From Gemmatimonadota bacterium (GTDB lineage: Bacteria; Gemmatimonadota; Gemmatimonadetes; Gemmatimonadales; GWC2-71-9): a stretch of DNA of 12,197 nt. The notes beneath the pieces were generated by a model. The model worked only from the letters and a program-made list of their open reading frames with translations. It was not told the origin of the DNA and searched no databases. Where the stretch lies: contig JBDHAB010000068.1 of assembly GCA_039588295.1 (NCBI GenBank), positions 1 to 12,197 on the forward strand, given 5' to 3'. Below are positions 187 through 12,197 of this stretch, one piece after another (positions within the stretch are counted from its first letter, which is position 1; each line of letters opens with the position of its first letter). Both the position numbers and the translations under genes were made by a program.

Positions 187-1605
187 ATGCCGCAGAAGTC
201 GTCGTTGGAGGATGGGAAGAACATCGCGGTAGCGCTCGCTGCGTTGCTGAGTCTCATGGCCACGGATGGGGCCAGGGGGCAGATGGCGTTCCCGCGCGAG
301 CCGGAGGAGGACAACCGGGAGTACGTTCTCGACGCCGTCACCAACGACAACAGCCGATTGTGGCGCGAGGTATGGGACGCCGGCGACAACCGCTTTCGCA
401 TGCGAGTGGGGAGCAACAACGTCGCGCAGTGGTTCCTGGAAGAGCAGCTCAAGTTCTCCGCCAATCTGATAGAGCATCGCCTCCGCTTTCGGTTTCATCA
501 CGCCCGGCTCCTTCGCTACTCGAGCGAGCGGCTCGCGGGCGATACCTTCGAATTCGAAGTGCGCGCGTTTGACGACAACTATGTGTCCGCTTACGCGACG
601 CCGACCTCCGTGCGGGCGGAGAACGCCATCGGGCTCGTGCTGCAGAATCGGAGGGCGGTGGACCGGTACTCACTCTTCTTCATCGATTTCCCCCACGTGG
701 TTCGCAATTTCACCGAGGACCGGAAGGGCACCTCGGACAGTCTCAACGTGGTCTTCACCGACAAACCGGTTCGACTCGGCCTGAATGTTCGGGAGCGGCT
801 CCACCGCGGCATCTGGCTGAGGCTCGAGGGCGAGCTCGTGCCCGAATTCACGGTGGCCGAGGAGGACAGGGCGACGGGCTCGGCAGGCCGTTCGGAAAAG
901 ATAAAGGCGAGATCACTCGCGGGCTGGCTCGAAACCAACTGGCCGCAGACGGACCCTTTACCGGCGCGGTCGGCGATTGGCATCGAGGCGGGGTATCGGC
1001 GGGACGAGCGCACGGAGGGTTCTACGTTCCTCAGCGGGGCGCAGGCGCCGGGGGAAGCGGTGGCGCCATTGACGGAGCGCAGCGACAGGAACCGCCCGCG
1101 GGGTGCCGGCGGCCTCATTCTCATGGAATTCGACAAGGACCTCTACTGGATCAGTCCAGACGATTCGGTGACCGCCTGGTGCCACACGCGGACATACGGC
1201 AAGCCCTATGCCTGGATCGTCCTGAACGATCGGTGGACGGTGCGTGCAGCGGTTCTTATCGAAATGCGGGAGATCCGGCGGCGCAACCGGCAGTCGGTGG
1301 AAACATCGATCGAGAACCGCTACGTCGCGCCGGCGGCGGGTGCGCGGCTCGGTCTGGGCGCGCGGCGCCGGGCGACCGTTGAAATGGGATGGGCCTCGCT
1401 GTTTCGCCGGCGTGAAGAGCGAACGGGGGCGGGCCCGCCGGTCGAGACCGACATCGACGACCACCGCATCTATGCGGCGTTCGAATACGCGTTCGGCCCC
1501 GACAGAATCGTGCGCCTGGTCGAAGCGTTCGATCTCGACGCGCGCGACCGCGGGCAGTACGGCATTCACGACCACGCCTTCGTCCAGATGATCATCGGGT
1601 TCTGA
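187..1605 (+). CDS. Predicted outer-membrane beta-barrel protein, uncharacterised
   Basis: The ORF track opens at GTG112, but ATG187 (or TTG205) gives a Sec signal peptide (KNIAVALAALLSLMATDGARG|Q). Many alternating hydrophobic/polar strands (e.g. RLRFRFHHA, WLRLEGEL, WTVRAAVLIE, IYAAFEYAF). C-terminal HAFVQMIIGF ends in Phe, as in a BAM beta-signal. Stop TGA 1603-1605. Start uncertain. Confidence 0.75.
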   Translation: MPQKSSLEDGKNIAVALAALLSLMATDGARGQMAFPREPEEDNREYVLDAVTNDNSRLWREVWDAGDNRFRMRVGSNNVAQWFLEEQLKFSANLIEHRLRFRFHHARLLRYSSERLAGDTFEFEVRAFDDNYVSAYATPTSVRAENAIGLVLQNRRAVDRYSLFFIDFPHVVRNFTEDRKGTSDSLNVVFTDKPVRLGLNVRERLHRGIWLRLEGELVPEFTVAEEDRATGSAGRSEKIKARSLAGWLETNWPQTDPLPARSAIGIEAGYRRDERTEGSTFLSGAQAPGEAVAPLTERSDRNRPRGAGGLILMEFDKDLYWISPDDSVTAWCHTRTYGKPYAWIVLNDRWTVRAAVLIEMREIRRRNRQSVETSIENRYVAPAAGARLGLGARRRATVEMGWASLFRRREERTGAGPPVETDIDDHRIYAAFEYAFGPDRIVRLVEAFDLDARDRGQYGIHDHAFVQMIIGF

Positions 1606-1719
1606 GGCCTCGATCGAGGCACGACCTGCTCTACGCGCCTCTGGGCCAAGGAATATCTTTGAAAACTGCTGCGCCAGTCCCCTGTAGCGCGAGTTTGAAT
1701 CCCTGGCGGCCGTCGGAGC

Positions 1720-1748
1720 TTGCTTTTCGCTCTCTGGAGTGATACACT
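1720..1748 (+). promoter_or_regulatory. Sigma70-type promoter for Cys-rich gene copy 1
   Basis: TTGCTT (1720-1725), 17-bp spacer, TACACT (1743-1748), with extended -10 TG at 1740-1741. Predicted TSS ~1755, just before the conserved leader hairpin. Confidence 0.6.
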
Positions 1749-1756
1749 CGCCGGAC

Positions 1757-1855
1757 GTTGAGGGGTCTGCGTACGGCGATTTCTCGACAGCGGCAGAGGT
1801 GCCTTCCATCCCACGGGAGGGGAGCAGTGCACCGGGGCGCTTCGCCCGAAGCCGC
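1757..1855 (+). ncRNA. Candidate structured cis-regulatory 5' leader RNA, copy 1 (unassigned family)
   Basis: Hairpin 1757-1788, then a three-way junction: GCGGC1790-94/GCCGC1851-55, GGTGC1798-1802/GCACC1829-33 with an inner hairpin, and GGGCG1835-39/CGCCC1843-47. The three substitutions relative to copy 2 all keep pairing. Confidence 0.5.
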
Positions 1856-1869
1856 CCCACTGGACAAGG

Positions 1870-1879
1870 AAGGAGGTGA
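1870..1879 (+). promoter_or_regulatory. Shine-Dalgarno AAGGAGGTGA
   Basis: Full-length anti-SD complement 6 nt upstream of GTG1886. Confidence 0.9.
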
Positions 1880-1885
1880 GCCTTT

Positions 1886-2653
1886 GTGAAGAAGGCTATC
1901 GTTTTCCTTCTAGTCCCGATTTGTGCAGCGTTTGTTCTGGGTCTTCTGGTAACACCGCAGACCAAGGTACAGCACCAGGACTCGTCCGCGTTCCAGGTTG
2001 CCTTGCAGGGCGCCGTGGACCGTCTCGAAGGGGGCGGCAACGTGCTCCTGGCGGGGACGGCAACGCCGGTCCACGCGGCACCGCAGCAGCCGACGTTCGA
2101 CGGTCGCTACACGTGCGACACGTACGAGCCGATCATGACAACGTGTGATCCGGCGCAGGGTTGCGCGGATCACACACAGGATCCCCTGGGCCACACGTGC
2201 GTGGCCGAGGAGTACACCTGCCAGCAGGCGACGTGTGACACGTATGACCCGCGGGCGTTCACGTGTGATCCCAACCTAGCGGAGTGTAATCTCCCGCATA
2301 CGACGGAGCCGACTCCGTACAGCCACACCTGTCAGGGTCACACCTGCGACGGTTCGTTCACCTGTGATTTCACGGTGGATCCGAGGGCGCTCACGTGCGA
2401 CGCGGCGGACCCGCTGTGCGAGTCCACCACGTTCAACGCGTTCATTCCCACGTGCAATCCGATGCTTCCGGAGTGTCGGCTGAACAACCCCGGTCACTGC
2501 ACGGCGCAGGGGTATCACACGTGCGAGCCGACCGCTCATACGTGCGATCCGGCCTTCCCGGATTGTACAACCATCGATCCATCGCAGCCGGGTTGCGCGA
2601 CCCCGGTCGAGAAGACCAGCTGGGGCCAGATCAAGCATCTGTATGGAGAGTAG
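1886..2653 (+). CDS. Exported Cys-rich Thr-Cys-Asp repeat protein with C-terminal SWGQIKxLY tail, paralog 1 (255 aa)
   Basis: GTG start with perfect SD. N-terminal MKK plus hydrophobic helix. 20 Cys in residues 77-237, 13 of them as TC. Ends TPVEKTSWGQIKHLYGE. Reading frame conserved with paralog 2 (~83% identity by manual alignment). Confidence 0.92.
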   Translation: MKKAIVFLLVPICAAFVLGLLVTPQTKVQHQDSSAFQVALQGAVDRLEGGGNVLLAGTATPVHAAPQQPTFDGRYTCDTYEPIMTTCDPAQGCADHTQDPLGHTCVAEEYTCQQATCDTYDPRAFTCDPNLAECNLPHTTEPTPYSHTCQGHTCDGSFTCDFTVDPRALTCDAADPLCESTTFNAFIPTCNPMLPECRLNNPGHCTAQGYHTCEPTAHTCDPAFPDCTTIDPSQPGCATPVEKTSWGQIKHLYGE

Positions 2654-2657
2654 TAAA

Positions 2658-2723
2658 GCCGTTGCGCGTGAACGGCAGGAATTCGGGGGCGAAGCCAAAT
2701 CGGCTTCGTCCCCGGATTTTTTT
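2658..2723 (+). terminator. Rho-independent terminator after paralog 1, preceded by a small hairpin
   Basis: GCCGTT/AACGGC hairpin (2658-2676), then a stem 2682-2696/2702-2716 with loop AAATC, followed by T7 (2717-2723). Confidence 0.85.
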
Positions 2724-2832
2724 GACCCGCGGGCGAGTCTTCGCATGCGCTGTTATCGAGGTTCTGCCGCGCGTGTCCGACCGGCGAAGCCCCGCCATGT
2801 TTTCCAAGCCTCCTCTTAGGCTTCCACCGAAT

Positions 2833-2878
2833 TGATGCAATGGCATCATGGTGCCGTTGTCCGTCGATTTGATAGACT
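2833..2878 (+). promoter_or_regulatory. Promoter region for copy 2: palindrome TGATGC-N4-GCATCA plus extended -10 TGaTAGACT
   Basis: Inverted repeat at 2833-2848, where an activator site or -35 flank would lie. No recognisable -35. The -10 (2873-2878) is homologous to the copy 1 -10. Confidence 0.45.
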
Positions 2879-2884
2879 CGGTGC

Positions 2885-2983
2885 GTCGAGGGGTCTGCGT
2901 ACGGCGATTTCTCGGCAGCGGCAGAGGTGCCTTCCATTCCACGGGAGGGGAGCAGTGCACCGGGGCGCTTCGCCCGAAGCCGC
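2885..2983 (+). ncRNA. Candidate structured cis-regulatory 5' leader RNA, copy 2
   Basis: Same predicted fold as 1757-1855, with three substitutions that are all pairing-compatible. Confidence 0.5.
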
Positions 2984-2998
2984 CCCACTGGAGAAGGA

Positions 2999-3008
2999 AA
3001 GGAGGTGA
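2999..3008 (+). promoter_or_regulatory. Shine-Dalgarno AAGGAGGTGA
   Basis: 6 nt upstream of GTG3015. Confidence 0.9.
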
Positions 3009-3014
3009 GCCTTT

Positions 3015-3788
3015 GTGAAAAAGGCTATCGTTTTCCTTCTAATCCCGATTAGTGCAGCGTTTGTTCTGGGTCTTCTGGTAACGCCCCAGACCAAGGTGCA
3101 GCATCAGGACTCGTCTGCGTTCCAGGTTGCCTTGCAGGGAGCGGTGGACCGTCTCGAAGGGGGCGGCAGGGTGCTCCTGGCGGGAACGGCAACTCCGGTT
3201 CATGCGGCACCGCAGCAGCCGACGTTCGACGGTCGCTACACGTGCGACACGTATGAGCCGGCGATGTACACGTGTGACCCGGGGCTTCCGGAGTGCTATG
3301 ACCACACACTGGACCCCCAAGGCCACACGTGCCTCAACCTGGAGTACACGTGCCAGCAGGCGACGTGTGACACGTACGACCCGCGGGCGTTCACGTGTGA
3401 TCCCAACGTGGCAACGTGTAACTTCCCGCATACGACGGAGCCGGCTCCGTACAACCACACCTGTGACGGTCACACTTGCGACGGTCATTTGACCTGTGAT
3501 TTCACGGTGGATCCGAGGGCGCTAACGTGTGACGCGGCGGACCCGCAGTGCCACTTCACCACGTTCGACGCGTTCGCACCCACGTGCGACCCGCTGAAGC
3601 CAGAGTGCCGGGAGAACAACCCGCAGCACTGCACGGCGCAGGCGTATCCCACGTGCGATCCGAGCGTTCCTACGTGTGATCCAGGCAACCCGCTGTGTAC
3701 AACCATCGATCCGGTGCAGCCGGAATGCGCGACCCCGGTCGAGAAGACCAGCTGGGGCCAGATCAAGACGCTGTATGGAGAGAAGTAA
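3015..3788 (+). CDS. Exported Cys-rich Thr-Cys-Asp repeat protein with C-terminal SWGQIKxLY tail, paralog 2 (257 aa)
   Basis: Same architecture as paralog 1. All 20 mature-region Cys are conserved (14 as TC). Ends TPVEKTSWGQIKTLYGEK. Confidence 0.92.
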   Translation: MKKAIVFLLIPISAAFVLGLLVTPQTKVQHQDSSAFQVALQGAVDRLEGGGRVLLAGTATPVHAAPQQPTFDGRYTCDTYEPAMYTCDPGLPECYDHTLDPQGHTCLNLEYTCQQATCDTYDPRAFTCDPNVATCNFPHTTEPAPYNHTCDGHTCDGHLTCDFTVDPRALTCDAADPQCHFTTFDAFAPTCDPLKPECRENNPQHCTAQAYPTCDPSVPTCDPGNPLCTTIDPVQPECATPVEKTSWGQIKTLYGEK

Positions 3789-3789
3789 A

Positions 3790-3856
3790 GCCGTTGCGCA
3801 TGAACGGTAGGAATTCGGGGGCGAAGCCAAATCGGCTTCGTCCCCGGATTCTTTTT
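3790..3856 (+). terminator. Rho-independent terminator after paralog 2
   Basis: Small hairpin GCCGTT/AACGGT, then stem 3811-3828/3834-3851 (loop AAATC), followed by T5 (3852-3856). Confidence 0.8.
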
Positions 3857-3884
3857 GACCTGCGAGGGAGTCTTCGAATACGAT
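3855..3884 (+). promoter_or_regulatory. Candidate sigma70 promoter for the membrane-protein pair, overlapping the terminator T-tract
   Basis: TTGACC (3855-3860), 18-bp spacer, TACGAT (3879-3884). SD-like AGGGGG at 3902-3907 precedes ATG3915. Confidence 0.45.
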
Positions 3885-3914
3885 GTTATCGAGGTTCGGC
3901 CAGGGGGATAACAC

Positions 3915-6338
3915 ATGCGGTTGTGGGCCCGGAACATCTCGTTTCTCCTTCTCATCGGCGCCACGCTGGGAAACCTGGGCTTCCTCGGTGGCGCTCTCTA
4001 TCCACTGATCGCGTTCCTGAGTTTCGCTGCCTTCATCTGGACGTTCTTCCCCTTCTTGCGGATCGGCCGTCGCGTCCCGCTCCCCGCGGTGGTGGCCGCC
4101 GTGTTGACCGCCGCGGTGGGTGTCTTGCTGTCCCGCCTGGCCCCACTGGGACTCTTCCACCTGTACCTGTTCGGGGCGGCGGCATTCCTCCTTCTCGGTT
4201 GGCGGCACGACTCCCGGGAGGCGCGTCACCTGCAGAGCTACGTGGTGGCGCTGGCCTGTACGGGACTCCTTGCCGAGCTGGTGCGGATACTTCCCATCCT
4301 CTGGCACCTCCGTGTGGGACTGGCCTCGGTCCTGTCTTGGGTCGGTGAAAACCTGGCGCGGGAAGATCGAAACCTGGGGCCGACCGCCATGGCATTGCCG
4401 TCACTCGTTGCCCTGATCCTCCTCGTGCTGGTCCGAGAGGCGGCTGCCGAACGGCGCCATCGCTATCGATGGGCGATCGGGCTGCTCGTGCTGGTGGCCT
4501 CGCACCTCTTCTATCTGGCCATGCTGAAGTACTACGCGCGCTGGGTTGCCTCCCACCGCGGGTGGGACTGGTTGATTTTGAACTCGCAGCACGTGTTTCT
4601 CATCTTGGGAAGCATCGCGTACACACTCTTCGATCGCGGCCGACCGGTGCGCTGGCTATGGCCCCCGCCGGCGCGACGCGTCGCCTTTGCCTCTTCGCTG
4701 GCCTTCGCGCTGGGCGTGGCCGCGGCGCTGACACTCGGCTGGACGACGACACCTCGGCGAGGATCGCCTCGCGTGATGATTTACGACGCGGGCTACATCA
4801 ACTGGAAGGTGCCCGTCCACGGCGTCTACGGCGAGAAAAGCGCCGGCATGTTCGGGATGCTCCCCGCGGCGTTGGAGTCGGTTGGATTCGACGTGGTCGC
4901 TTCGGATGATTTGACCCGGCTCGATCAGGCCGGCGCACCCGCGTGCATCGTAATGATCAATATCCAGGAGTATCTCGAAGACGAGGACAAGGAACGCATC
5001 TGGCGATTCATCGAACGGGGTGGTGGCCTGCTGTGCCTGGGGGATCACACGGGTGTCGCCGGCATACGCGGTCCGTTCAACGACCTTCTCGAGCCTGTGG
5101 GAATCCGCTTCCGGTTCGACAGCTCGACATTCTTTGGAGACGGATGGAGTGACGCCCTCGATTACCGCGCCCATCCCATGAACCGAGGCGTCACGACGGC
5201 AGAAGACTTCCAGATTTGGGTCGGCGCCACGCTCGATATCGATGTCAATGCTCGCCCGGTGGTCGTCGGCCGTTACGGGTACTCCGACATCGGCGATGCG
5301 GCCAATATCGCGCGTTCCTATCTCGGTGATCGCCGCTACAACCCGGACGAACTTCTGGGCGACGTCGTCCTGGTCGCCGACGCCCGCTACGGCCAGGGGA
5401 AGGTCATGGTGTTCGGGGACACCTCCGGCTATCAGAACCTGTCGCTGGGGCGGAGCCTGGACACCGTGGCGCGCTCACTGGATTACCTCAGCGCGGGCGG
5501 TCGGTTTGGCCCAGGGGTGGGCACACAGATTGGCGGACTCATCGCGATACTGCTGATTGTCCTGGCGAGTTTCGCGTTGGCCGCGAATCCCATGCCCATC
5601 GTCGCCGTGACCCTGGGGCTGGCAATCGGGTCTGCGGCGATGCATCTGGTGACCACGACACCGCAGCCGCTGAGCCCGGTCTTTGCCGAGCCGTCTTGGA
5701 AACCCGTCGCGGATCTCCCGTTCGAGGTCGGACGGTCCCTCGCGGTGATCGATGGGTCCCATGGAGGGCACCACACCCTGCGCGGGTGGAAGGACCGGAG
5801 CCTCGGAGGACTTCAGTTGAACCTGGCCCGCAACGGCTACTTCCCCGTCGTCCGCCCCGAGTTTCCATACCGGGACATGGAGAACGGAGCCAAGGTGCTG
5901 CTCCTCATTGCCCCCACGCGCAGGTACAGCCAGGGAGAGATCGACGCCGTCGAGCGATTCTTGACCCAGGGTGGACGCGTCATCGCGGCGGTGGGATTCG
6001 AGGAGCTCGACGCCTCGCGTGGTCTTCTGGAACATTTCGGGCTGACGGTTGCGAACATACCGTTGGGACAATTCGAGATTCGGGCGGAGAGCGACACGCT
6101 CGCGGTCAACTTCCGGGAGGCGTGGCCGGTACAGTTCGACCCAACGAACCCCGCCGACGTCCTGCTATCCCAGTGGGACTATCCCGTGGTGGTGAGGCGC
6201 ACGGTTGGAAAGGGCGACATCGTGCTGATCGGGGACAGCGCTTTCTTTCACGACGTAAACCTGGAGACCCGTGATCGGTACTTCGCGGGCAACGTCGCGT
6301 TCTTCAGAGAGCTGACCGAAATGGGAAGTGTGCAATGA
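3915..6338 (+). CDS. Multi-pass membrane protein with two GldG/DUF4350-like (class I glutamine amidotransferase-like fold) domains (807 aa)
   Basis: About 275 aa of N-terminal hydrophobic helices. Domain 1 has RFIERGGGLLCLGDHT...NDLLEPVGIRF...HPM...GQGKVMVFGD. Then a TM hairpin. Domain 2 has VIDGSHG...RFLTQGGRVI...GKGDIVLIGDSAFF. These are typical GldG/DUF4350-like motifs. Confidence 0.8.
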   Translation: MRLWARNISFLLLIGATLGNLGFLGGALYPLIAFLSFAAFIWTFFPFLRIGRRVPLPAVVAAVLTAAVGVLLSRLAPLGLFHLYLFGAAAFLLLGWRHDSREARHLQSYVVALACTGLLAELVRILPILWHLRVGLASVLSWVGENLAREDRNLGPTAMALPSLVALILLVLVREAAAERRHRYRWAIGLLVLVASHLFYLAMLKYYARWVASHRGWDWLILNSQHVFLILGSIAYTLFDRGRPVRWLWPPPARRVAFASSLAFALGVAAALTLGWTTTPRRGSPRVMIYDAGYINWKVPVHGVYGEKSAGMFGMLPAALESVGFDVVASDDLTRLDQAGAPACIVMINIQEYLEDEDKERIWRFIERGGGLLCLGDHTGVAGIRGPFNDLLEPVGIRFRFDSSTFFGDGWSDALDYRAHPMNRGVTTAEDFQIWVGATLDIDVNARPVVVGRYGYSDIGDAANIARSYLGDRRYNPDELLGDVVLVADARYGQGKVMVFGDTSGYQNLSLGRSLDTVARSLDYLSAGGRFGPGVGTQIGGLIAILLIVLASFALAANPMPIVAVTLGLAIGSAAMHLVTTTPQPLSPVFAEPSWKPVADLPFEVGRSLAVIDGSHGGHHTLRGWKDRSLGGLQLNLARNGYFPVVRPEFPYRDMENGAKVLLLIAPTRRYSQGEIDAVERFLTQGGRVIAAVGFEELDASRGLLEHFGLTVANIPLGQFEIRAESDTLAVNFREAWPVQFDPTNPADVLLSQWDYPVVVRRTVGKGDIVLIGDSAFFHDVNLETRDRYFAGNVAFFRELTEMGSVQ

Positions 6339-8977
6339 CGCTGGTCTGGTTGGGAATACTGATGCTGGCGTTCTCCTGGCTGGGGGCATTGCCCATCTTC
6401 CATCCGGCCAGCGGCTCGTGGCCATGGCTTCCCGCCGGCGTGGCGCTCCTGGTGGTCGGGCTGCGCCATACCGACCTGTGGGCGGAGGGCGACCGCGTGC
6501 GCCCGGCCATCGCGGTGCTGGTGGTCTCGATCGCGGCCGTGGCCTGGCTGGAGGGCCCGTTCCACATCGGATTTCTGTTGTTGGGCCTGGCGGCGATCAT
6601 CACGCTGCTGCCCGTTGTCCGCACCCTCGGGCGGTGGGCACTGCCCGGCCTCTGGGTGTCCGGGATGGTGTGCGTCGTGCAAGCGGCGTGCGTGCCGCTG
6701 CTCTACGCTTTTTGTGCGCGTTACCATCGGACCGCCGAGCTGCCATTCCTGCACGATCTATTGCCCGGATACCCCGCCGTGCCGTGGCTGGCCGCGCTCC
6801 TGTACGTACCGATAAAGATTCTGAATCCCGGGACGGCTCTCAACGGCTCGACGTTGCACCTCTCCACCTCACTGGACACCGTGGCGCTCACGCCAACCTG
6901 GGAGAAGTTGGGCCTGATACCGGCGGTGCTGTTCGCGGCAGGAGCGGGCCTCGTCGTGCTCCTTCGTCCCGACTGGCGCAAGCGACTCGCCGGCCTGCTC
7001 GTCGGGATCGTTGTGTTCTTGTACGTGCGTCTCCTCTTTCTCTTCGTGCTGGTAATGCACCTTCGGAACGAGCGCGTGTTCTGGCTCCCGGACGCTCTTC
7101 TCTTGAGTTTCCTGCCGCTGCCGTTTCTGCTGGCCGCGTGGTGGCGATCGGGCGTCCAGGCCGGTGCGGAGCACCCCGCAGGCAACGAGACATCGCGCCA
7201 GCCGGGTTTCGGCCGTCGCATCCGCCGTTGGCTTTCGGGTGCGAACGACAATCCGAGATTCTTCGCCCGTGGATGCCGAAAGTCCCGCGTGTTCCTGGCC
7301 ACGGGGCTTCTTGCGGGCGGGCTCACGTTGCTCTTCGGGTTTCACGACCCCGGGAGCCCCAAGCCTGGACGCGTCCTCATCGACGAGGGTCACAGCGACT
7401 GGGAGTGGACCACGCAGCCCTTCGACACCACCTGGTACGGCGGCAAGTCGGGCTACAACTACTACTGCCTCGCCGATTACTGGAGTTACTACTACCACGT
7501 GGAGACCCGCCAAGACAGCCTGACGCCCGAGTTCCTGGCCGACTGGGACGTGCTAGTCGTCAAGACACCTACCATGGGTTTCGCGCGCGACGAGGTCGAT
7601 GCCATCGAGGATTTCGTTCGCCGGGGTGGGGGGCTGTTTCTCATCGGTGATCACACGAACGTGTTTGGCACCAGCACCCATCTCAATCCCATCGCCGAGC
7701 GATTTGGCATGTACTTCCGGTATGACGCCACGTACAACCTGGCCAATCTGGGTCTCAGTACTTTCGAGCGCCCCCAACGCTTCGCCCACCCGGTGGTTCG
7801 GTTCATGCCCTCCTACCTGTTTGCCACGTCGTGCACGCTCTACGGCCCGCCGCTTTCGGAAAACGTGCTTCTCGGCTACGGGTTGCGGGCGATGTACCTG
7901 GACTATTCGGAGGTCAGCTATTTCCCGACCAAAACGGAAAAGTGGGATTACGACTTTGGCCTGTTTCTGCAGGCGGGCGGTGTGAAGTTTGGAAAGGGGA
8001 GGGTGCTGGGCTTCACCGACAGCACGTGTTTCTCCAACTTCTTCATGTTCATGCAGGGAAAGCCCGAGATGGCGCTCGCGTCGATCGAATGGCTGAACCG
8101 CAAGAACCGATGGGCGTGGCTTTCCAGGGTTTTCGTGCTCGCATCGCTCGCCGGATTGACTCTGCTCGCGATGGAAGCTCGCCGCAACTCGGGCGCGTCG
8201 TTTTGGAGCTGGGTGACCGTCTCGGGTACGCTGGCCGTCGTCCTGCTGGGCGCACTCGCCGAATCCTGGGTCACGCGATCGTACGCACTACCAGAACCGC
8301 GGCGGGAACCGGTCTACGTCACCTTCGATCAGAGTCACGGGAACTACGTTGTGCCCGGGGAGCGGCTCCCCGTGATGAACTGGCAAAATTTTCAAACCTT
8401 CTATGTGTGGACGCAACGCCTCGGTTTGGTCCCGCGCAACGAGCCCAGTCTCGACAGGGCCGTCCAAAACGCCCGCGCCCTGGTCGAGATCCAACCCATT
8501 CGGCCATTCTCGATCGAAGATATCGATCGGATCGTCGATTTCGTTCGGCGGGGGGGCACGCTCGTTGTCCTGGATTCACCGGAGAACCTCGGGAGCACGG
8601 CGCCGTCGCTCCTGGGGCCGTTCGGCATCGAATTCGACGAGGAGGCGGCCGATTCCGTCGCCGTCCTGGATGCTGCCGGTGACACACTGGGGGTCGCACG
8701 AAGTGCTACCGGCGTGAACAATGTAAAACCGCTTTTGAGGCTCGGTGACGGTCGGATTGCCATGGGCTACCTGCCCTTCGCCAAGGGCATGGTGGTGGCG
8801 TGCGCGGCTTCGTACCTGTTCAGCTCCGAATCCATGGGAAACACCGCCGTCGTGCCCGATGACCGGCGACGGCGTTTGTTTCGGGCGGAGTACGACATCT
8901 TCGAGAAGGTTGCCGGCCTGGAAGTCCGCGAACGCTACTATATGGATCTGGAAACACCGGCAGGAACCAGCCCCTGA
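6335..8977 (+). CDS. Multi-pass membrane protein, exosortase-like N-terminal region plus two GldG/DUF4350-like domains (880 aa); paralog of the upstream gene
   Basis: ATGA overlap with the upstream stop. Hydrophobic N-terminal ~335 aa. Domain 1 has VLIDEGHSDWEW...DFVRRGGGLFLIGDHT...NPIAERFGMYF...HPV...GKGRVLGFTDS. Then a TM hairpin. Domain 2 has FDQSHG...DFVRRGGTLVVL. Confidence 0.8.
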   Translation: MTLVWLGILMLAFSWLGALPIFHPASGSWPWLPAGVALLVVGLRHTDLWAEGDRVRPAIAVLVVSIAAVAWLEGPFHIGFLLLGLAAIITLLPVVRTLGRWALPGLWVSGMVCVVQAACVPLLYAFCARYHRTAELPFLHDLLPGYPAVPWLAALLYVPIKILNPGTALNGSTLHLSTSLDTVALTPTWEKLGLIPAVLFAAGAGLVVLLRPDWRKRLAGLLVGIVVFLYVRLLFLFVLVMHLRNERVFWLPDALLLSFLPLPFLLAAWWRSGVQAGAEHPAGNETSRQPGFGRRIRRWLSGANDNPRFFARGCRKSRVFLATGLLAGGLTLLFGFHDPGSPKPGRVLIDEGHSDWEWTTQPFDTTWYGGKSGYNYYCLADYWSYYYHVETRQDSLTPEFLADWDVLVVKTPTMGFARDEVDAIEDFVRRGGGLFLIGDHTNVFGTSTHLNPIAERFGMYFRYDATYNLANLGLSTFERPQRFAHPVVRFMPSYLFATSCTLYGPPLSENVLLGYGLRAMYLDYSEVSYFPTKTEKWDYDFGLFLQAGGVKFGKGRVLGFTDSTCFSNFFMFMQGKPEMALASIEWLNRKNRWAWLSRVFVLASLAGLTLLAMEARRNSGASFWSWVTVSGTLAVVLLGALAESWVTRSYALPEPRREPVYVTFDQSHGNYVVPGERLPVMNWQNFQTFYVWTQRLGLVPRNEPSLDRAVQNARALVEIQPIRPFSIEDIDRIVDFVRRGGTLVVLDSPENLGSTAPSLLGPFGIEFDEEAADSVAVLDAAGDTLGVARSATGVNNVKPLLRLGDGRIAMGYLPFAKGMVVACAASYLFSSESMGNTAVVPDDRRRRLFRAEYDIFEKVAGLEVRERYYMDLETPAGTSP

Positions 8978-8992
8978 GCCGGTGGCACCCCG

Positions 8993-11900
8993 CTACTTGA
9001 GCAGCAACATCTTTCTGGCTGCCACGAAGCCCCGCTCCCGGATCTCGTAGAAATAGAGGCCCGTCGCAACCGGGCTTCCGTGACGGTTGGTGCCCCTCCA
9101 GACGACCTCGTACCGGCCCGACGGGAGGATCTCATCGACCAGAGTATGGACGAGTGCCCCGGTGACATCGAAGATCCGGAGCGTGACCCTCTGCGGGCTG
9201 CCGTCGGGCACGTAGAATACGATGGTGGTCGAGGGGTTGAACGGATTGGGGTGGTTCTGGAGGAGAGCCGGTATCGAAATGGGGATCGGGGTCGGCCCGA
9301 CGTCGCCCACATGGGTAGGCACGTTGAAACCGATGCGGCCGTTTCGATGCACGTTCGCGTGGAACGTGGGCCACGGTGCCAGTTGGGCATCGTGAGTGCC
9401 GGAGAGATCCCAAACGTAGAGGTTGTTGTCCCACCCGGCGGCGATTAGGTCTGTATCACCATCCTGGTCGACATCGTCGACGAAGGGCGCCGCGCGAACC
9501 GCATCCATGGTCGCGATCGGGAAGCCGTCGATCGGCTGGCCCCCGAGGTCATACGCATAGAGATAGCGCGACTCATCGCCGACCAGGATGTCGAGCGCTC
9601 CATCGCCATCGATGTCGGCGACGACGGGCGAACACTCGGAAGCGATGACGACGTTGAAGGTAACCGGCCACCCAGGATAATCCTGTCCGTCGGCTTTCAG
9701 GACGTGGAGTCTGGTGGCGCTCGCCGTGTAGCCGACCAGCACGACTTCGAGCTTATCGTCATCGTCGAGGTCGGCGAGCGCTGGCGACGGACAAAAGAAC
9801 GGCTCGTTTATCGCTACGTAACGCGGCCACCCGGACGCGACGCCGGCGTCGTGATTCAGGACGTAGACGTGCCCCGTCCTCGCGTGACAGACTATCTCTA
9901 TCAGACCGTCATTGTCCACGTCACCCGCGGCAACGCTGCCCACGGCCTCGCCGGGCAGGGCGAATGGCCAACCCCCGACCGCACTCCCGTCCTCGTTCAG
10001 TGCATAGACCGTGTCCGCTCGCGTGCCCAGGATGATCTCGTCTTTTCCGTCCAAGTCGATATCGCAGGCGGCCGGCGTCTGGTAGTGGTAGTTGGTGGTG
10101 GGGGTGCGGAAGAAGACTCCGTCGGTCGCGGGATTGAGGTCGCCGTCTATCAGTTCGGACCCGTCGGCGTGCCAGGCATAAATCACGCCGCGTACGTCGA
10201 CGGCAATCACTTCGTGGAGTCCGTCGCCGTCGAGGTCTGCCGCGACGGGCGTCGCCCGGAACTGATCCTCCGCGACTCGTGGCCACCCCGGCAGCGCGGC
10301 ACCGCTGTGGTCCATGCAGTAGACCGATTCCGTGAAGAGGTCGGCCGCGATGATATCGAGTCCCGGGCCGGCGTCCAGCCGTGCCAATGCGACGGCGGCG
10401 GTGAAGTCGTTCCCCTCCGTGCTCAATATTCCCCACGTCTGCGGATCGCCATCGCCGTCACGGAGCTCGGTGCCGTCGTGATGCCATGCGTAGACGTAGC
10501 GGTTGCCAACGACGATCTCCTTGTCCCCGTCGCCGTCAATGTCGCCGACGGCCGGCGAAGACGCTGTGGGGTTCTGCATCTCGATCGGAAACCCCGCTTG
10601 CTGGGGCGGATTCGTGCTCACGGAAGACTCCGCGGAGGGCAAGCTCTCATTTCCTGCGCTGTCGATCGACGTGACCACGTAATAGTACCGCGTGTTTGGT
10701 TGAAGGTTGGAATCCATGAAAACCGCGTGTTCCACCGGGTCGACCGAGACCAGGTCGTACGGGCCGCCCGACGTCAGGGAGTGATAGACATTGTATCTCG
10801 CGACGTCGGGCGCGGAGCTCTTCGACCACGTCACTTCGATGCGGTCCACCGCGTGGCTGGCGTCGAATGACAAGCCCGTTGGCGGTGCAGGACCCCTCAG
10901 CTCGATCGTGTCTCGATGCGATCGCCCGAAGAGGTCGACGATTTCGACTGCGAGGTAATGTTCGCTCGACGTCGACGTCTCGATGATATGAAAGCCCATC
11001 GCGTTTTCGACAGTGGTAAACGGCAGACAGTCGGAATACGAGTCGGTGCTGTCCAGGAAAACGAAAGCCCCGTCCAGATCCGTCACCTGCGCTGTCAGGC
11101 CGGCGGCGGCACCCGTCCCGTAGTTCTTTACTCCGTAGAAGAGAAGAAACTCCTCCATCGCCTCGTTGACGCCGTTACCGTTCCCGAGCGGCGGATCGTC
11201 ATCGATTCGAAGCGTGATCAACTCCAACTCCGGCGCGTGGACGGTCTCACGATAGGTGTCGCCCCAGCTGCCGGCTAGATCGTCTTGAATCGTCAATTCG
11301 AACTGCGCAACCGTCTCGTCCGGAATACCCGTGGCAAATGCAACCCGAACCGGATCCAGGGCCGCTTTCACGGAATCGGGAACCACCACACCCACCGAGG
11401 CCGTGCTGTCGACGACCGTCACCGCCGAATCGTCGCACCGAATGATTACCGATACATTGCCCGAGGAACTGCCGCCAGTGTTGCCCAAGCTGAGTGTCAG
11501 GTCGACGGTCTCGCCGGCGTCAATCGCTCCGTCTCCGTTGCCGAAAGTCCCGCCCAGCGTATCATCGTCGACCTCGGAGCCGAGGCAATAAACATAGGGA
11601 GGAAGCGACGAATTCACGGTGATGAAGCTCTGGTGGCGCGCGAGGTTGAGACCGGTCACGACGACGCCAATACTGCCTGGTAATTCGACGGTGAACTCGA
11701 TGCTGACGTTACCCGTGACGTCTGTCGCTGCACGGCGGTAGTCCTCGCCCTCTTTGTACAGGCATACAACGGCCGAGTCGACCGGCTGCCCGCCGGCGGT
11801 AACGAGAACGGCGATGTCGGTCGTGCCCAGTTCGACGTTGGTGGGATGAACGACCGTGACGCTGTCCACGGCTCCCGTCCACAGCGGGAGCTCGGGATCG

Positions 11901-12197
11901 GACAGCAGCGTGTACACGTAATGCGTCCAGCGATCAACGTTGTCGCCCATTTCGGCCCATGCGGTCTGCGCGAGCCTCGATCCCGCAAATGCCGCACCGA
12001 TGCTGAAGACGCCCTGGTTGAAGACGAGGTCGTAGAAATCGTTCATGTAGTAGGCGTCGATGGTTGGGAACTCGTAGTCGCTCGCGCCGATTGTTGCGAC
12101 AGCGCCACCATTCGGATTTCTCATGAAGTGTTCGGCGATACAATAGTAGTCGAACGCCGACACGCTGCAGTCGACCATGAAGAGCATGAAGAGCCGA
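8993..12197 (-). CDS. Secreted peptidase C25 (gingipain-family) multidomain protein with Ig-like, FnIII, FG-GAP repeats and T9SS/FlgD-Ig C-terminal domain; 5'-truncated by the window edge
   Basis: Frame is open to the window end. C25 motifs: MVDCSVSAFD (Cys at the catalytic-like position, 12167-12169), CIAEHF...GGAVATIGAS, YTLLSDPEL. Two DD..GNG(D/N)G Ig-like modules. FnIII (PAPPTGL...YNVY...YYYVVTSIDSAGNES). Eight D(I/L/V)DxDG-type FG-GAP repeats. CTD LLQNHPNPFNPSTTI...IFDVTG...GLYFY...RKMLLLK. Stop TAG at 8993-8995. Confidence 0.88.
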   Translation of the reverse strand, partial: RLFMLFMVDCSVSAFDYYCIAEHFMRNPNGGAVATIGASDYEFPTIDAYYMNDFYDLVFNQGVFSIGAAFAGSRLAQTAWAEMGDNVDRWTHYVYTLLSDPELPLWTGAVDSVTVVHPTNVELGTTDIAVLVTAGGQPVDSAVVCLYKEGEDYRRAATDVTGNVSIEFTVELPGSIGVVVTGLNLARHQSFITVNSSLPPYVYCLGSEVDDDTLGGTFGNGDGAIDAGETVDLTLSLGNTGGSSSGNVSVIIRCDDSAVTVVDSTASVGVVVPDSVKAALDPVRVAFATGIPDETVAQFELTIQDDLAGSWGDTYRETVHAPELELITLRIDDDPPLGNGNGVNEAMEEFLLFYGVKNYGTGAAAGLTAQVTDLDGAFVFLDSTDSYSDCLPFTTVENAMGFHIIETSTSSEHYLAVEIVDLFGRSHRDTIELRGPAPPTGLSFDASHAVDRIEVTWSKSSAPDVARYNVYHSLTSGGPYDLVSVDPVEHAVFMDSNLQPNTRYYYVVTSIDSAGNESLPSAESSVSTNPPQQAGFPIEMQNPTASSPAVGDIDGDGDKEIVVGNRYVYAWHHDGTELRDGDGDPQTWGILSTEGNDFTAAVALARLDAGPGLDIIAADLFTESVYCMDHSGAALPGWPRVAEDQFRATPVAADLDGDGLHEVIAVDVRGVIYAWHADGSELIDGDLNPATDGVFFRTPTTNYHYQTPAACDIDLDGKDEIILGTRADTVYALNEDGSAVGGWPFALPGEAVGSVAAGDVDNDGLIEIVCHARTGHVYVLNHDAGVASGWPRYVAINEPFFCPSPALADLDDDDKLEVVLVGYTASATRLHVLKADGQDYPGWPVTFNVVIASECSPVVADIDGDGALDILVGDESRYLYAYDLGGQPIDGFPIATMDAVRAAPFVDDVDQDGDTDLIAAGWDNNLYVWDLSGTHDAQLAPWPTFHANVHRNGRIGFNVPTHVGDVGPTPIPISIPALLQNHPNPFNPSTTIVFYVPDGSPQRVTLRIFDVTGALVHTLVDEILPSGRYEVVWRGTNRHGSPVATGLYFYEIRERGFVAARKMLLLK

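Follow-up and report, generated by a model that had tools for sequence, protein, structure and literature searches.

Lanthipeptide gene clusters follow a common logic, in which a leader is discarded, the Thr-Cys core is variable, the precursor gene is strongly translated and followed by a terminator, and dedicated enzymes act on the product. Here we describe a locus whose working logic is, by analogy, most like that of a lanthipeptide system shifted to the outer face of the cytoplasmic membrane. It lies in the window, by which we mean the whole stretch of DNA analysed (12,197 nt, the entire contig C68 of the host bin G000), and consists of two exported Cys-rich proteins, CYS1 and CYS2, and two paralogous membrane proteins, MA and MB. 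The module is real, widespread and apparently undescribed, and its mechanism is unproven. Chemistry aside, we consider it highly probable that it is a dedicated, leader-directed and ATP-independent maturation machine that acts outside the membrane. That this maturase forms Thr-Cys thioether rings of the methyllanthionine type is the reading we prefer, with a probability of roughly 0.45.

As in lanthipeptides of classes I to IV, a conserved leader is followed by a core in which Thr precedes Cys in the N-to-C direction, and this feature, by which membership is recognised, is present here. Both also have precursor genes that carry a strong Shine-Dalgarno (SD) sequence and are closed by a terminator before the enzyme genes begin, and both have, in some genomes, several precursors per cluster. 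Unlike lanthipeptides, however, the substrates carry a Sec signal and have cores the size of proteins, with as many as about 90 Cys, joined to surface anchors, and the candidate enzymes MA and MB are predicted to face outward, to a side that offers neither ATP nor tRNA. LanC-like genes (PF05147) were found in 4 of 50 MB-bearing genomes, mostly incomplete bins, and in none of 14 controls, and no Lan synthetase recurs in the 88 loci compared. The abundant exported repeat subunit is reminiscent of curli and Fap; unlike those systems, the module has no co-conserved outer-membrane channel and occurs also in monoderms and archaeal bins.

Characterised precursors of ribosomally synthesised peptides with post-translational modifications (RiPPs) are, apart from a few exceptions, modified within the cytoplasm (excerpted text of PMC13712780). 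Bufferins and other MNIO RiPPs resemble the present substrates in having Cys-rich precursors, some of them long, with a Sec signal; they differ in that the signal replaces the typical leader and that the MNIO enzyme and its DUF2063-type partner act before export (excerpted text of PMC12452194). In contrast, our system has a separate leader and Thr-Cys pairing, and only MA and MB recur beside the substrates; no MNIO enzyme or partner family recurs in the 88 loci compared, DUF692 not having been searched genome-wide. TMcins, as presented in the excerpts of PMC13712780, are RiPPs whose maturation takes place at the membrane and involves integral membrane proteins, among them an uncharacterised escort, but they are small bacteriocins with a transmembrane (TM) helix, and leader removal and disulfide formation are among the maturation steps listed. 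This likeness is descriptive, and no homology is claimed. The module falls outside the definitions of exosortases, GldG, lanthipeptides I-IV, MNIO RiPPs and curli. A first-pass annotation of the window had recognised no named system of this composition. That judgement holds for the membrane pair with its Cys-rich proteins: no description of the module was found in a literature search judged by the titles and abstract openings of the records listed, outside whose scope lay subscription journals, the original GIFT paper and supplements, and the excerpted text of a graspetide survey (PMC8939145) does not describe it.

Composition and distribution of the module

The genes of the module and the main features of the substrates are located in the window as follows.

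1886-2653, forward strand: CYS1, substrate 1, 255 aa, with 35 homologues
1982-2032, forward strand: leader motif of CYS1, a variant of S-P-[LA]-F-x-x-[SA]-L-x-x-[AS]-[IV]-x-x-L-E-G
2093-2596, forward strand: Thr/Cys repeat core of CYS1, with an own Thr 4-10 residues upstream assignable for 19 of 20 Cys
3015-3788, forward strand: CYS2, substrate 2, 257 aa, a tandem duplicate of CYS1 with matching anatomy; leader at 3111-3161
3915-6338, forward strand: MA, 807 aa, with nine predicted TM helices, GIFT domain 1 (aa 283-528, predicted outside), two TM helices and GIFT domain 2 (aa 606-803, predicted outside)
6335-8977, forward strand: MB, 880 aa, predicted layout as in MA, with GIFT domain 1 at aa 343-591 and GIFT domain 2 at aa 658-862

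The 3' end of MA and the 5' start of MB share 4 nt. Together with a putative outer-membrane beta-barrel gene (187-1605), these genes make up five open reading frames (ORFs) in one orientation, and all five envelope-type genes named in the first-pass annotation were present.

We identified 418 MB homologues among 8000 scored candidates. In GTDB, 223 stretches containing MB were confirmed, and the best 80 of the 223 were examined. The loci with MB are assigned to, among others, Latescibacterota, Eisenbacteria, Krumholzibacteriota, Zixiibacteriota, KSB1, Calditrichaeota, Bacteroidota and Ignavibacteriota, and also to Desulfobacterota-type lineages, Chloroflexota, Bacillota, Verrucomicrobia, Blastocatellia, Anammoxibacter and two archaeal bins. 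MA and MB were no more than 10 kb apart in 62 of the 80 GTDB loci, several of the others stopping at contig edges. When ten genomes without an adjoining MA were searched, a full-length MA was found elsewhere in seven and a partial one in one, and none was found in two. When the ORFs of 88 loci were clustered, the widespread families were limited to the substrates and to MA and MB with their antisense shadows; after these, the most frequent real family was present in eight loci. The conserved system thus has three parts, namely MA, MB and an exported substrate. The neighbourhoods of MA and MB homologues in GTDB, which the first-pass annotation had expected to contain both Thr-Cys repeat ORFs and the barrel, contain recurrent Thr/Cys substrates but not the barrel. 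The barrel had been assigned a role in exporting, anchoring or binding the substrates; it was absent from all 87 foreign loci and present in only 3 of 50 MB-positive genomes, never adjoining the module, which speaks against such a role.

Several loci showed arrangements of their own. In five Bacteroidota/KSB1-type loci (L034, L062, L063, L066, L082), MB lies beside one or two substrates with short cores, MA is often unlinked, and a trio of TolC-like, adaptor-like and MacB-like permease genes, named by inspection of their sequences, may form a dedicated exporter. In L167-L170 an unlinked MA stands immediately 3' of a gene for a MerR-like helix-turn-helix protein, and a LexA-like gene is near two of them, these names too being judged from the sequences. 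In genome G302 (L011, L178, L193) the MA-MB operon is apparently split into two distant pieces, and no leader-bearing substrate was found there. A metal ABC (ATP-binding cassette) solute-binding-like gene lies near the module in L004, L005, L006, L011 and L085, three of these loci being near-identical, and gives a weak hint of a connection with metals.

The leader and the substrate family

The substrates share a signal peptide, an S-P-x-F leader helix, a Thr/Cys repeat core and an anchor that is specific to each lineage. In CYS1 the hydrophobic helix covers aa 4-22, the leader helix aa 33-49 and the core Thr70 to Cys237, followed by a WGxIK tail; a putative signal-peptidase site follows Ala64. 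The leader motif, located soon after the N-terminal hydrophobic helix, is what otherwise divergent Thr/Cys-rich ORFs beside MA and MB have in common. The signal shared by the substrates is therefore this N-terminal leader, which the first-pass annotation had overlooked. No Pfam or NCBIfam model matched the leader, the cores, CYS1, CYS2 or the barrel, and 26 foreign substrates searched against domain models gave tail domains and low-complexity matches only.

To follow the leader, we used a profile of the signal and the motif that included no core sequence. A leader ORF was found at 47 of the 80 GTDB loci, seeds counted, and, among 37 MB genomes picked because they had no adjoining leader, it was found elsewhere in 24. 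Cys/Thr cores followed in all 17 of the non-seed leader loci inspected, two of which were ended by a contig edge; seven weaker matches were left uninspected. As a control, the profile was run on 150 genomes from the host phylum, and the two genomes that matched did so through Cys-poor false matches. Among relatives of genome G301, it matched in the single MB-positive genome, where the true substrate lies 4 kb from MB, and in 1 of 56 MB-negative genomes, again a Cys-poor false match. A search of 1.84 billion representative sequences gave 114 matches, some of them the seeds; among the matches listed, at least six Cys followed the leader in 82 of 114 (two of them unrelated), 23 were fragments too short to judge, and nine had fewer Cys. 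The leader tracks MB across genomes.

The C-termini of foreign substrates vary widely and include a type IX secretion system (T9SS)-type C-terminal domain (CTD; L025), SLH domains (L073, L075), a WD40-like propeller (L048), GEVED/PKD domains (L037, L054), an IPTL-type tail (L206), a WGxIK tail or none at all. The position of the putative A-x-A cleavage site also differs, being before the leader in many lineages and after it in the window's family, where P61 is kept in 30 of 31 sequences and A64 in 31 of 31. In this family, therefore, the signal and the leader would come off together. In five Desulfobacterota-type substrates (L044, L147, L162, P0223, P0240), an inserted globular domain of about 110 aa separates the first repeats from the main T-M-N-P array.

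The first-pass annotation had proposed that the membrane pair processes or modifies the repeat proteins, at their T-C-D motifs or at the C-terminal tail. The pair most likely does act on the Cys-rich proteins, but a role of the tail as the recognised signal is not supported. It occurs in 9-49 copies in each of five MB-negative relatives out of five, and most foreign substrates bear other anchors.

Thr-Cys pairing in the substrate cores

Cores with fewer than six Cys, truncated ends and five unrelated matches were left out before counting. Thr made up 16% and Cys 13% of the residues in 98 cores, and Thr was at least as frequent as Cys in 88 of them. The repeat units range from T-C-x-x and S-T-C-x-G-S to T-M-[ND]-P-x-D-P-x-C and Y-T-x-D-P-x-x-W-P-x-C. 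Even in the 11 cores built of long units, Thr was present within 249 of 250 intervals between Cys, at position -8 (65%) or -9 (36%).

The ends of the arrays were examined for direction. In 66 of 67 cores a Thr lay at -4 to -10 from the first Cys, compared with 31 of 67 for a control window. The last Cys had a Thr at -1 in only 7 of 67 cores, compared with 812 of 1086 internal Cys, which is expected if the Thr at -1 serves the next Cys. The array ends therefore indicate that the pattern runs from a Cys to a Thr upstream of it. When Cys and Thr were matched one to one, 1325 of 1391 Cys obtained a Thr 4-10 residues upstream, whereas downstream matching accommodated 1155 and shuffled cores gave 964 ± 14. 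The same upstream matching placed 19 of 20 Cys in CYS1 and in CYS2 each. When each cluster formed at 50% identity was represented by a single core, upstream matching exceeded downstream in 14 of 15, with one tie, and exceeded the shuffles in 15 of 15. An odd number of Cys was present in 41 of 79 cores, unlike proteins in which all Cys form disulfides.

Three other candidates for the chemistry of the cores were rejected. Modification of T-C dipeptides, for example to thiazolines, does not agree with a last Cys that has no Thr at -1 or with long repeats that contain no T-C. Ranthipeptide-type links from Cys to a downstream Thr run opposite to the observed direction. Heme attachment was dropped as CYS1 and CYS2 contain no CxxCH.

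The membrane pair

MA and MB are paralogous over their full length (hhalign probability 100%, E 4e-47), and Pfam matches to DUF4350, ABC_transp_aux and GIFT revealed two such domains in each protein. Along with the 4-nt overlap, this agrees with their earlier description as coupled membrane paralogues with domains of a glutamine amidotransferase (GATase)-like fold. NCBIfam gave no family above cut-off for either protein, and the GldG model TIGR03521 scored 12.5 bits against a cut-off of 389.85, so that the cluster is not the Gld pathway. Confident AlphaFold2 models were obtained, with pLDDT 88.5 and pTM 0.89 for MB, and pLDDT 90.1 and pTM 0.91 for MA. The predicted layout common to both consists of nine membrane helices, GIFT domain 1, two helices and GIFT domain 2. 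Both GIFT domains are predicted to be extracytoplasmic, because basic residues crowd alternate loops (the positive-inside rule), most clearly before helix 9.

The nearest solved folds for the GIFT domains of MA and MB are those of IFT52, the site-1 protease domain and OST48/Wbp1 (Z 16.6-21.3). The best match had Z 21.3 and a root-mean-square deviation (rmsd) of 2.8 over 211 aligned residues for MB, and Z 20.4 and rmsd 2.4 over 186 for MA; IFT52 was also matched by sequence (E 3e-8). No structural match was found for the membrane parts, which were searched inside the whole models and not alone. All four soluble domains thus share the fold of the GIFT proteins (GldG, IFT52, OST48/Wbp1, the site-1 protease domain), and the predicted extracytoplasmic location is shared with GldG and OST48. 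Unlike known GIFT proteins, however, MA and MB have two such domains per chain in 11-TM paralogues, as well as invariant Lys, Asp and His residues. Unlike GldAFG, they have no recurring GldA- or GldF-type partner; mixed ABC ATPases were present in only 8 of 88 loci.

Conservation in MB was assessed with 55 homologues of 33-72% identity. E351, E357, K410, D439, H440, T441, N442, D464, D562, N568, K576 and E578 are invariant in domain 1, and C500 is present in 98% of homologues. In the membrane part R232 is kept in 55 of 55, with the near-invariant H131 and E190, and these residues are predicted at or near the outer face. In MA the invariant residues are N349, H378, T379, D402, D458, E479 and D502, and those from H378 onward are kept in 53 of 53 sequences. 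No column of MA has 50% Cys, and neither protein contains CxxC. The conserved polar residues of the GIFT domains probably line one face of the domain, as judged from their positions at strand ends. The nucleophile-elbow Cys of class I GATases is absent, the corresponding strand ending in G-D-H-T in both proteins, with the elbow placed by sequence pattern. A complex prediction for MB (1-866) with CYS1 (1-120) scored 0.03 against a mark of 0.32.

The first-pass annotation had also likened the pair to exosortases. Residues 146-275 of MB do show the order of the exosortase/archaeosortase core, with a helix, a three-strand meander and two TM helices, and with the Arg in register: R232 aligns with the Arg of the N-x-x-R motif, although the corresponding position of MA is unconserved. 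Comparison with 19 exosortase cores by hhalign gave E 0.004 and a probability of 8%, and the reversed control gave E 0.083. The exosortase Atlas feature score for MB was 0.80, which is a lead only. As to a significant match to the exosortase models (PF09721, TIGR04178), 14 membrane regions had no Pfam match at E up to 10, and a narrow exosortase profile made from 10 close sequences did not match. Exosortases have been described as having a Cys-Arg-His triad (excerpted text of bioRxiv 10.1101/2023.06.07.544157). Unlike them, MB has E-K-L-G at the position of the catalytic Cys and F-W (W250) in the region of the His, its conserved H131 being located elsewhere, and MA lacks the Cys. The substrates also differ from those of PEP-CTERM and PGF-CTERM systems in that they share an N-terminal and not a C-terminal motif. 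The tails in the window have no TM helix, and a tripartite C-terminal signal is not general: only L206 has an IPTL-type tail, the others having SLH domains, T9SS-type domains or no tail. The likeness of MB to exosortases is weak and not significant.

Proposed mechanism and alternatives

In the preferred reading, MA and MB would form a heterodimeric, membrane-embedded maturase that faces outward. The substrate would be exported by Sec, its leader helix would be recognised by MA-MB, and each core Cys would be joined to a Thr 4-10 residues upstream. The assignment of the reaction to MA-MB itself, acting on the exported substrate, comes from the missing usual cyclase and from the lack of a synthetase that recurs nearby. 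Because ATP and tRNA are lacking on the outer side of the membrane, Thr would have to be activated from a membrane lipid, with the Arg-bearing membrane core of MB transferring an acyl group or a phospho-headgroup. Elimination of the activated Thr would take place in MB GIFT domain 1, in its Lys/Asp/His pocket, before the substrate Cys attacks. We propose this route as the most economical one. Chemical analogies exist in the elimination of esters by class I synthetases and in phospho-Thr lyases. In the lineage of the window, the leader would be removed at the A-x-A site (Ala64), and the product would reach the surface through whatever anchor the lineage already has.

A more specific proposal, which is tentative and clearly less probable than ring formation as such, is that MA-MB is the first extracytoplasmic lanthionine-type synthetase, following a portable leader and using lipid-activated Thr to make dozens of rings in surface proteins as a redox-proof alternative to disulfides. 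Such stapled proteins would belong to mostly uncultured, largely anaerobic bacteria and some archaea. If outward-facing, leader-directed maturation is confirmed, it will be a new kind of protein maturation common to diderms, monoderms and archaeal bins, and the first catalytic role for GIFT domains, which are held to be scaffolds in oligosaccharyltransferase and intraflagellar transport. A short, portable leader, a tolerance for cores of very different sequence and an apparent need for only three genes mark the system; if the thioether reading is true, it would offer ATP-free macrocyclisation of displayed peptides.

A number of observations weigh against thioether formation. We know of no enzyme that dehydrates Thr without ATP or tRNA, and of none with the GIFT fold; the nearest folds of MA and MB (IFT52, the site-1 protease domain and OST48/Wbp1) are non-catalytic GIFT domains. 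The genome-wide search for known maturation enzymes covered LanC-like genes, and not LanB, class V or radical SAM maturases. Thr is less frequent than Cys in 10 of 98 cores, L166 has a stretch with about four Cys per Thr, and L206 has its Thr at -2, with the next candidate Thr 12-13 residues off. The two least-matched clusters reach only 0.70-0.75. The limits of the cores come from a spacing rule that we set, and one cluster makes up 50 of the 79 cores. Thirteen of the 37 MB genomes, which are incomplete bins, gave no leader match. Finally, modification of Thr only (by a glycan or an acyl group) or a structural Thr-x(n)-Cys turn would give the same pattern.

One alternative, which we regard as unlikely, is that MA-MB is a leader-directed transferase that places a lipid-linked sugar, phosphoglycerol, phosphoethanolamine or acyl group on core Thr or Cys without cross-linking, and thereby makes a densely decorated surface protein. 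OST48/Wbp1 GIFT domains are among the closest folds (MB Z 18.6 and 16.7, rmsd about 3, about 215 aligned residues), and they have been proposed to bind sugar or help to recruit the lipid-linked sugar (excerpted text of PMC7226087). A lipid donor would suit a protein of eleven TM helices in which R232, H131 and E190 are predicted on or close to the outer face, and 16% of the core residues are Thr. However, a transferase leaves unexplained why each Cys has its own upstream Thr and why the last Cys has no Thr at -1. No glycosyltransferase or donor-synthesis family recurs widely, the largest such cluster being present in 6 of 88 loci, and no GT-C fold was among the structural matches listed, which barely covered the membrane part.

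Doubtful to the same degree is the view that the pair is a non-catalytic or redox chaperone, holding the leader while disulfides form or while Zn, Cu, Ni or Fe-S is loaded. Thr would then be structural or a second ligand, and the product a metal-binding or structural surface protein. This view fits the scaffold nature of known GIFT domains, the C500 present in 98% of MB homologues, the metal ABC solute-binding-like gene near the module in five loci (three near-identical) and the Cys-excess stretch of L166, which suits disulfides. Bufferins, which are Cys-rich exported RiPPs, bind copper according to the excerpted text of PMC12452194. It is at odds with the odd Cys number in 41 of 79 cores, with the lack of CxxC in both proteins and of a conserved Cys in MA, and with an invariant polar set in MB domain 1 that is denser than scaffolds usually keep. 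Moreover, the Thr partner is kept although the repeat spacing varies from 4 to 14 residues.

It is more improbable still that unlinked cytoplasmic enzymes, of the class V lanthipeptide, radical SAM or MNIO type, modify the substrates, with MA-MB serving only to export, retain, trim or sense the product. Bufferins with Sec signals are modified before export (PMC12452194, in the same excerpts), and our genome-wide test covered LanC-like genes only. However, no such enzyme recurs in the 88 neighbourhoods, and the leader follows the signal peptide in many lineages, so that it would be exported along with the core. An unlinked enzyme would also be required across Bacillota, Chloroflexota, Desulfobacterota, Bacteroidota and archaea.

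The five-gene model, with exosortase-like processing of the tail by the pair and export or anchoring of the product by the barrel, has the co-orientation of the five genes, the Arg-on-Arg register of MB with exosortases (E 0.004, reversed control 0.083) and the Atlas lead of 0.80 in its favour, but is already largely refuted by the distribution of barrel and tail and can hardly be right: none of the 87 foreign loci has the barrel and 47 of 50 genomes lack it, the module occurs also in Bacillota, Chloroflexota and archaeal bins, the tail is plentiful without MB, lacking in most substrate lineages and devoid of a membrane helix, and the catalytic Cys and His of exosortases are missing in MB.

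Expression signals, neighbouring genes and origin of the contig

The remaining features of the window are given below.

187-1605, forward strand: putative outer-membrane beta-barrel, 472 aa, unnamed family, a neighbour outside the conserved system
1870-1879, forward strand: SD sequence of CYS1, with a second copy at 2999-3008 ahead of CYS2
2600-2650, forward strand: [ST]WGx[IVL]K tail of CYS1, a tag spread genome-wide in Latescibacterota/Eisenbacteria/Krumholzibacteriota-type genomes, without specificity for the system
2677-2723, forward strand: intrinsic-terminator-like hairpin and U-run 3' of CYS1, z -5.4
3732-3785: C-terminal WGxIK-type tail of CYS2
3809-3857, forward strand: intrinsic-terminator-like hairpin separating the substrates from MA-MB, z -5.9
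3855-3884: weak sigma70-like site, overlapping the end of the 3809-3857 hairpin

CYS1 and CYS2 arose by tandem duplication of a unit of about 1.13 kb (spacing 1128-1133 nt), and the proteins, with 21 and 20 Cys, are 83% identical. The SD sequence AAGGAGGTGA precedes both genes. Each is followed by a hairpin with a U-run whose stability was equalled in none of 200 shuffles (z -5.4 and -5.9); both hairpins were overlooked by a simple terminator scan. The full SD and own terminators that had been read for these paralogues were thus seen, and these sequence signals suggest that CYS1 and CYS2 are strongly expressed. A riboswitch was considered for the 116-nt repeat upstream of both genes and was rejected, because beyond the SD the repeat is unconserved in 8 homologous loci and folds about as well as shuffled sequences (z -1.66). 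Rfam gave nothing at gathering scores over the window, with chance matches only at 1600-3920.

The first ORF remains a putative outer-membrane barrel, as first described, on the basis of a conserved C-terminal Phe and Atlas feature matches. Its 20 homologues (41-80% identity) have a strongly conserved Arg/Glu-rich N-terminal half, an invariant H-D-H near the C-terminus and, in the 18 aligned, an invariant C-terminal Phe. The Atlas feature matches (0.96-0.97) were to clusters called 'alginate export' or containing SlipAM (19% of members), at a recognition score below the mark. In the single-contig genome G301, the barrel lies about 860 kb from MB. Barrel homologues at L184 (G301) and L186 (G302) adjoin a small divergent gene whose product has a Cys-rich C-terminal tail.

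Five MB-positive genomes of the Latescibacterota/Eisenbacteria/Krumholzibacteriota type had 12-64 copies of the WGxIK pattern each, and five MB-negative relatives had 9-49; in five unrelated genomes the count was 0-1. The [ST]WGx[IVL]KxxY/F tail, found independently of MA-MB at 9-64 per genome (G301, G303, G306, G329, G330, G379, G380, G383, G384, G388), is a candidate sorting tag with no known handler.

G000 as a whole has three real WGxIK tails, two of them within the window. CYS and MB were found in none of 300 sampled genomes of the host phylum, and the nearest named homologues are in Latescibacterota and Eisenbacteria. The tetranucleotide distance of C68 was 1.31, between the 90th and 95th percentiles, and composition is undecisive. 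Contig C68 was probably misbinned or horizontally acquired, which leaves the system itself unaffected. At 8993-12197, on the reverse strand, lies the C-terminal part of a convergent C25 (gingipain-family) peptidase with fn3, FG-GAP repeats and a FlgD/T9SS-type CTD; no C25 peptidase was found in 20 relatives of the host genome. Contigs C64, C75 and C79 have, like C68, T9SS-type CTDs or WGxIK tails, features seldom present elsewhere in the bin, which suggests misbinned or transferred DNA.

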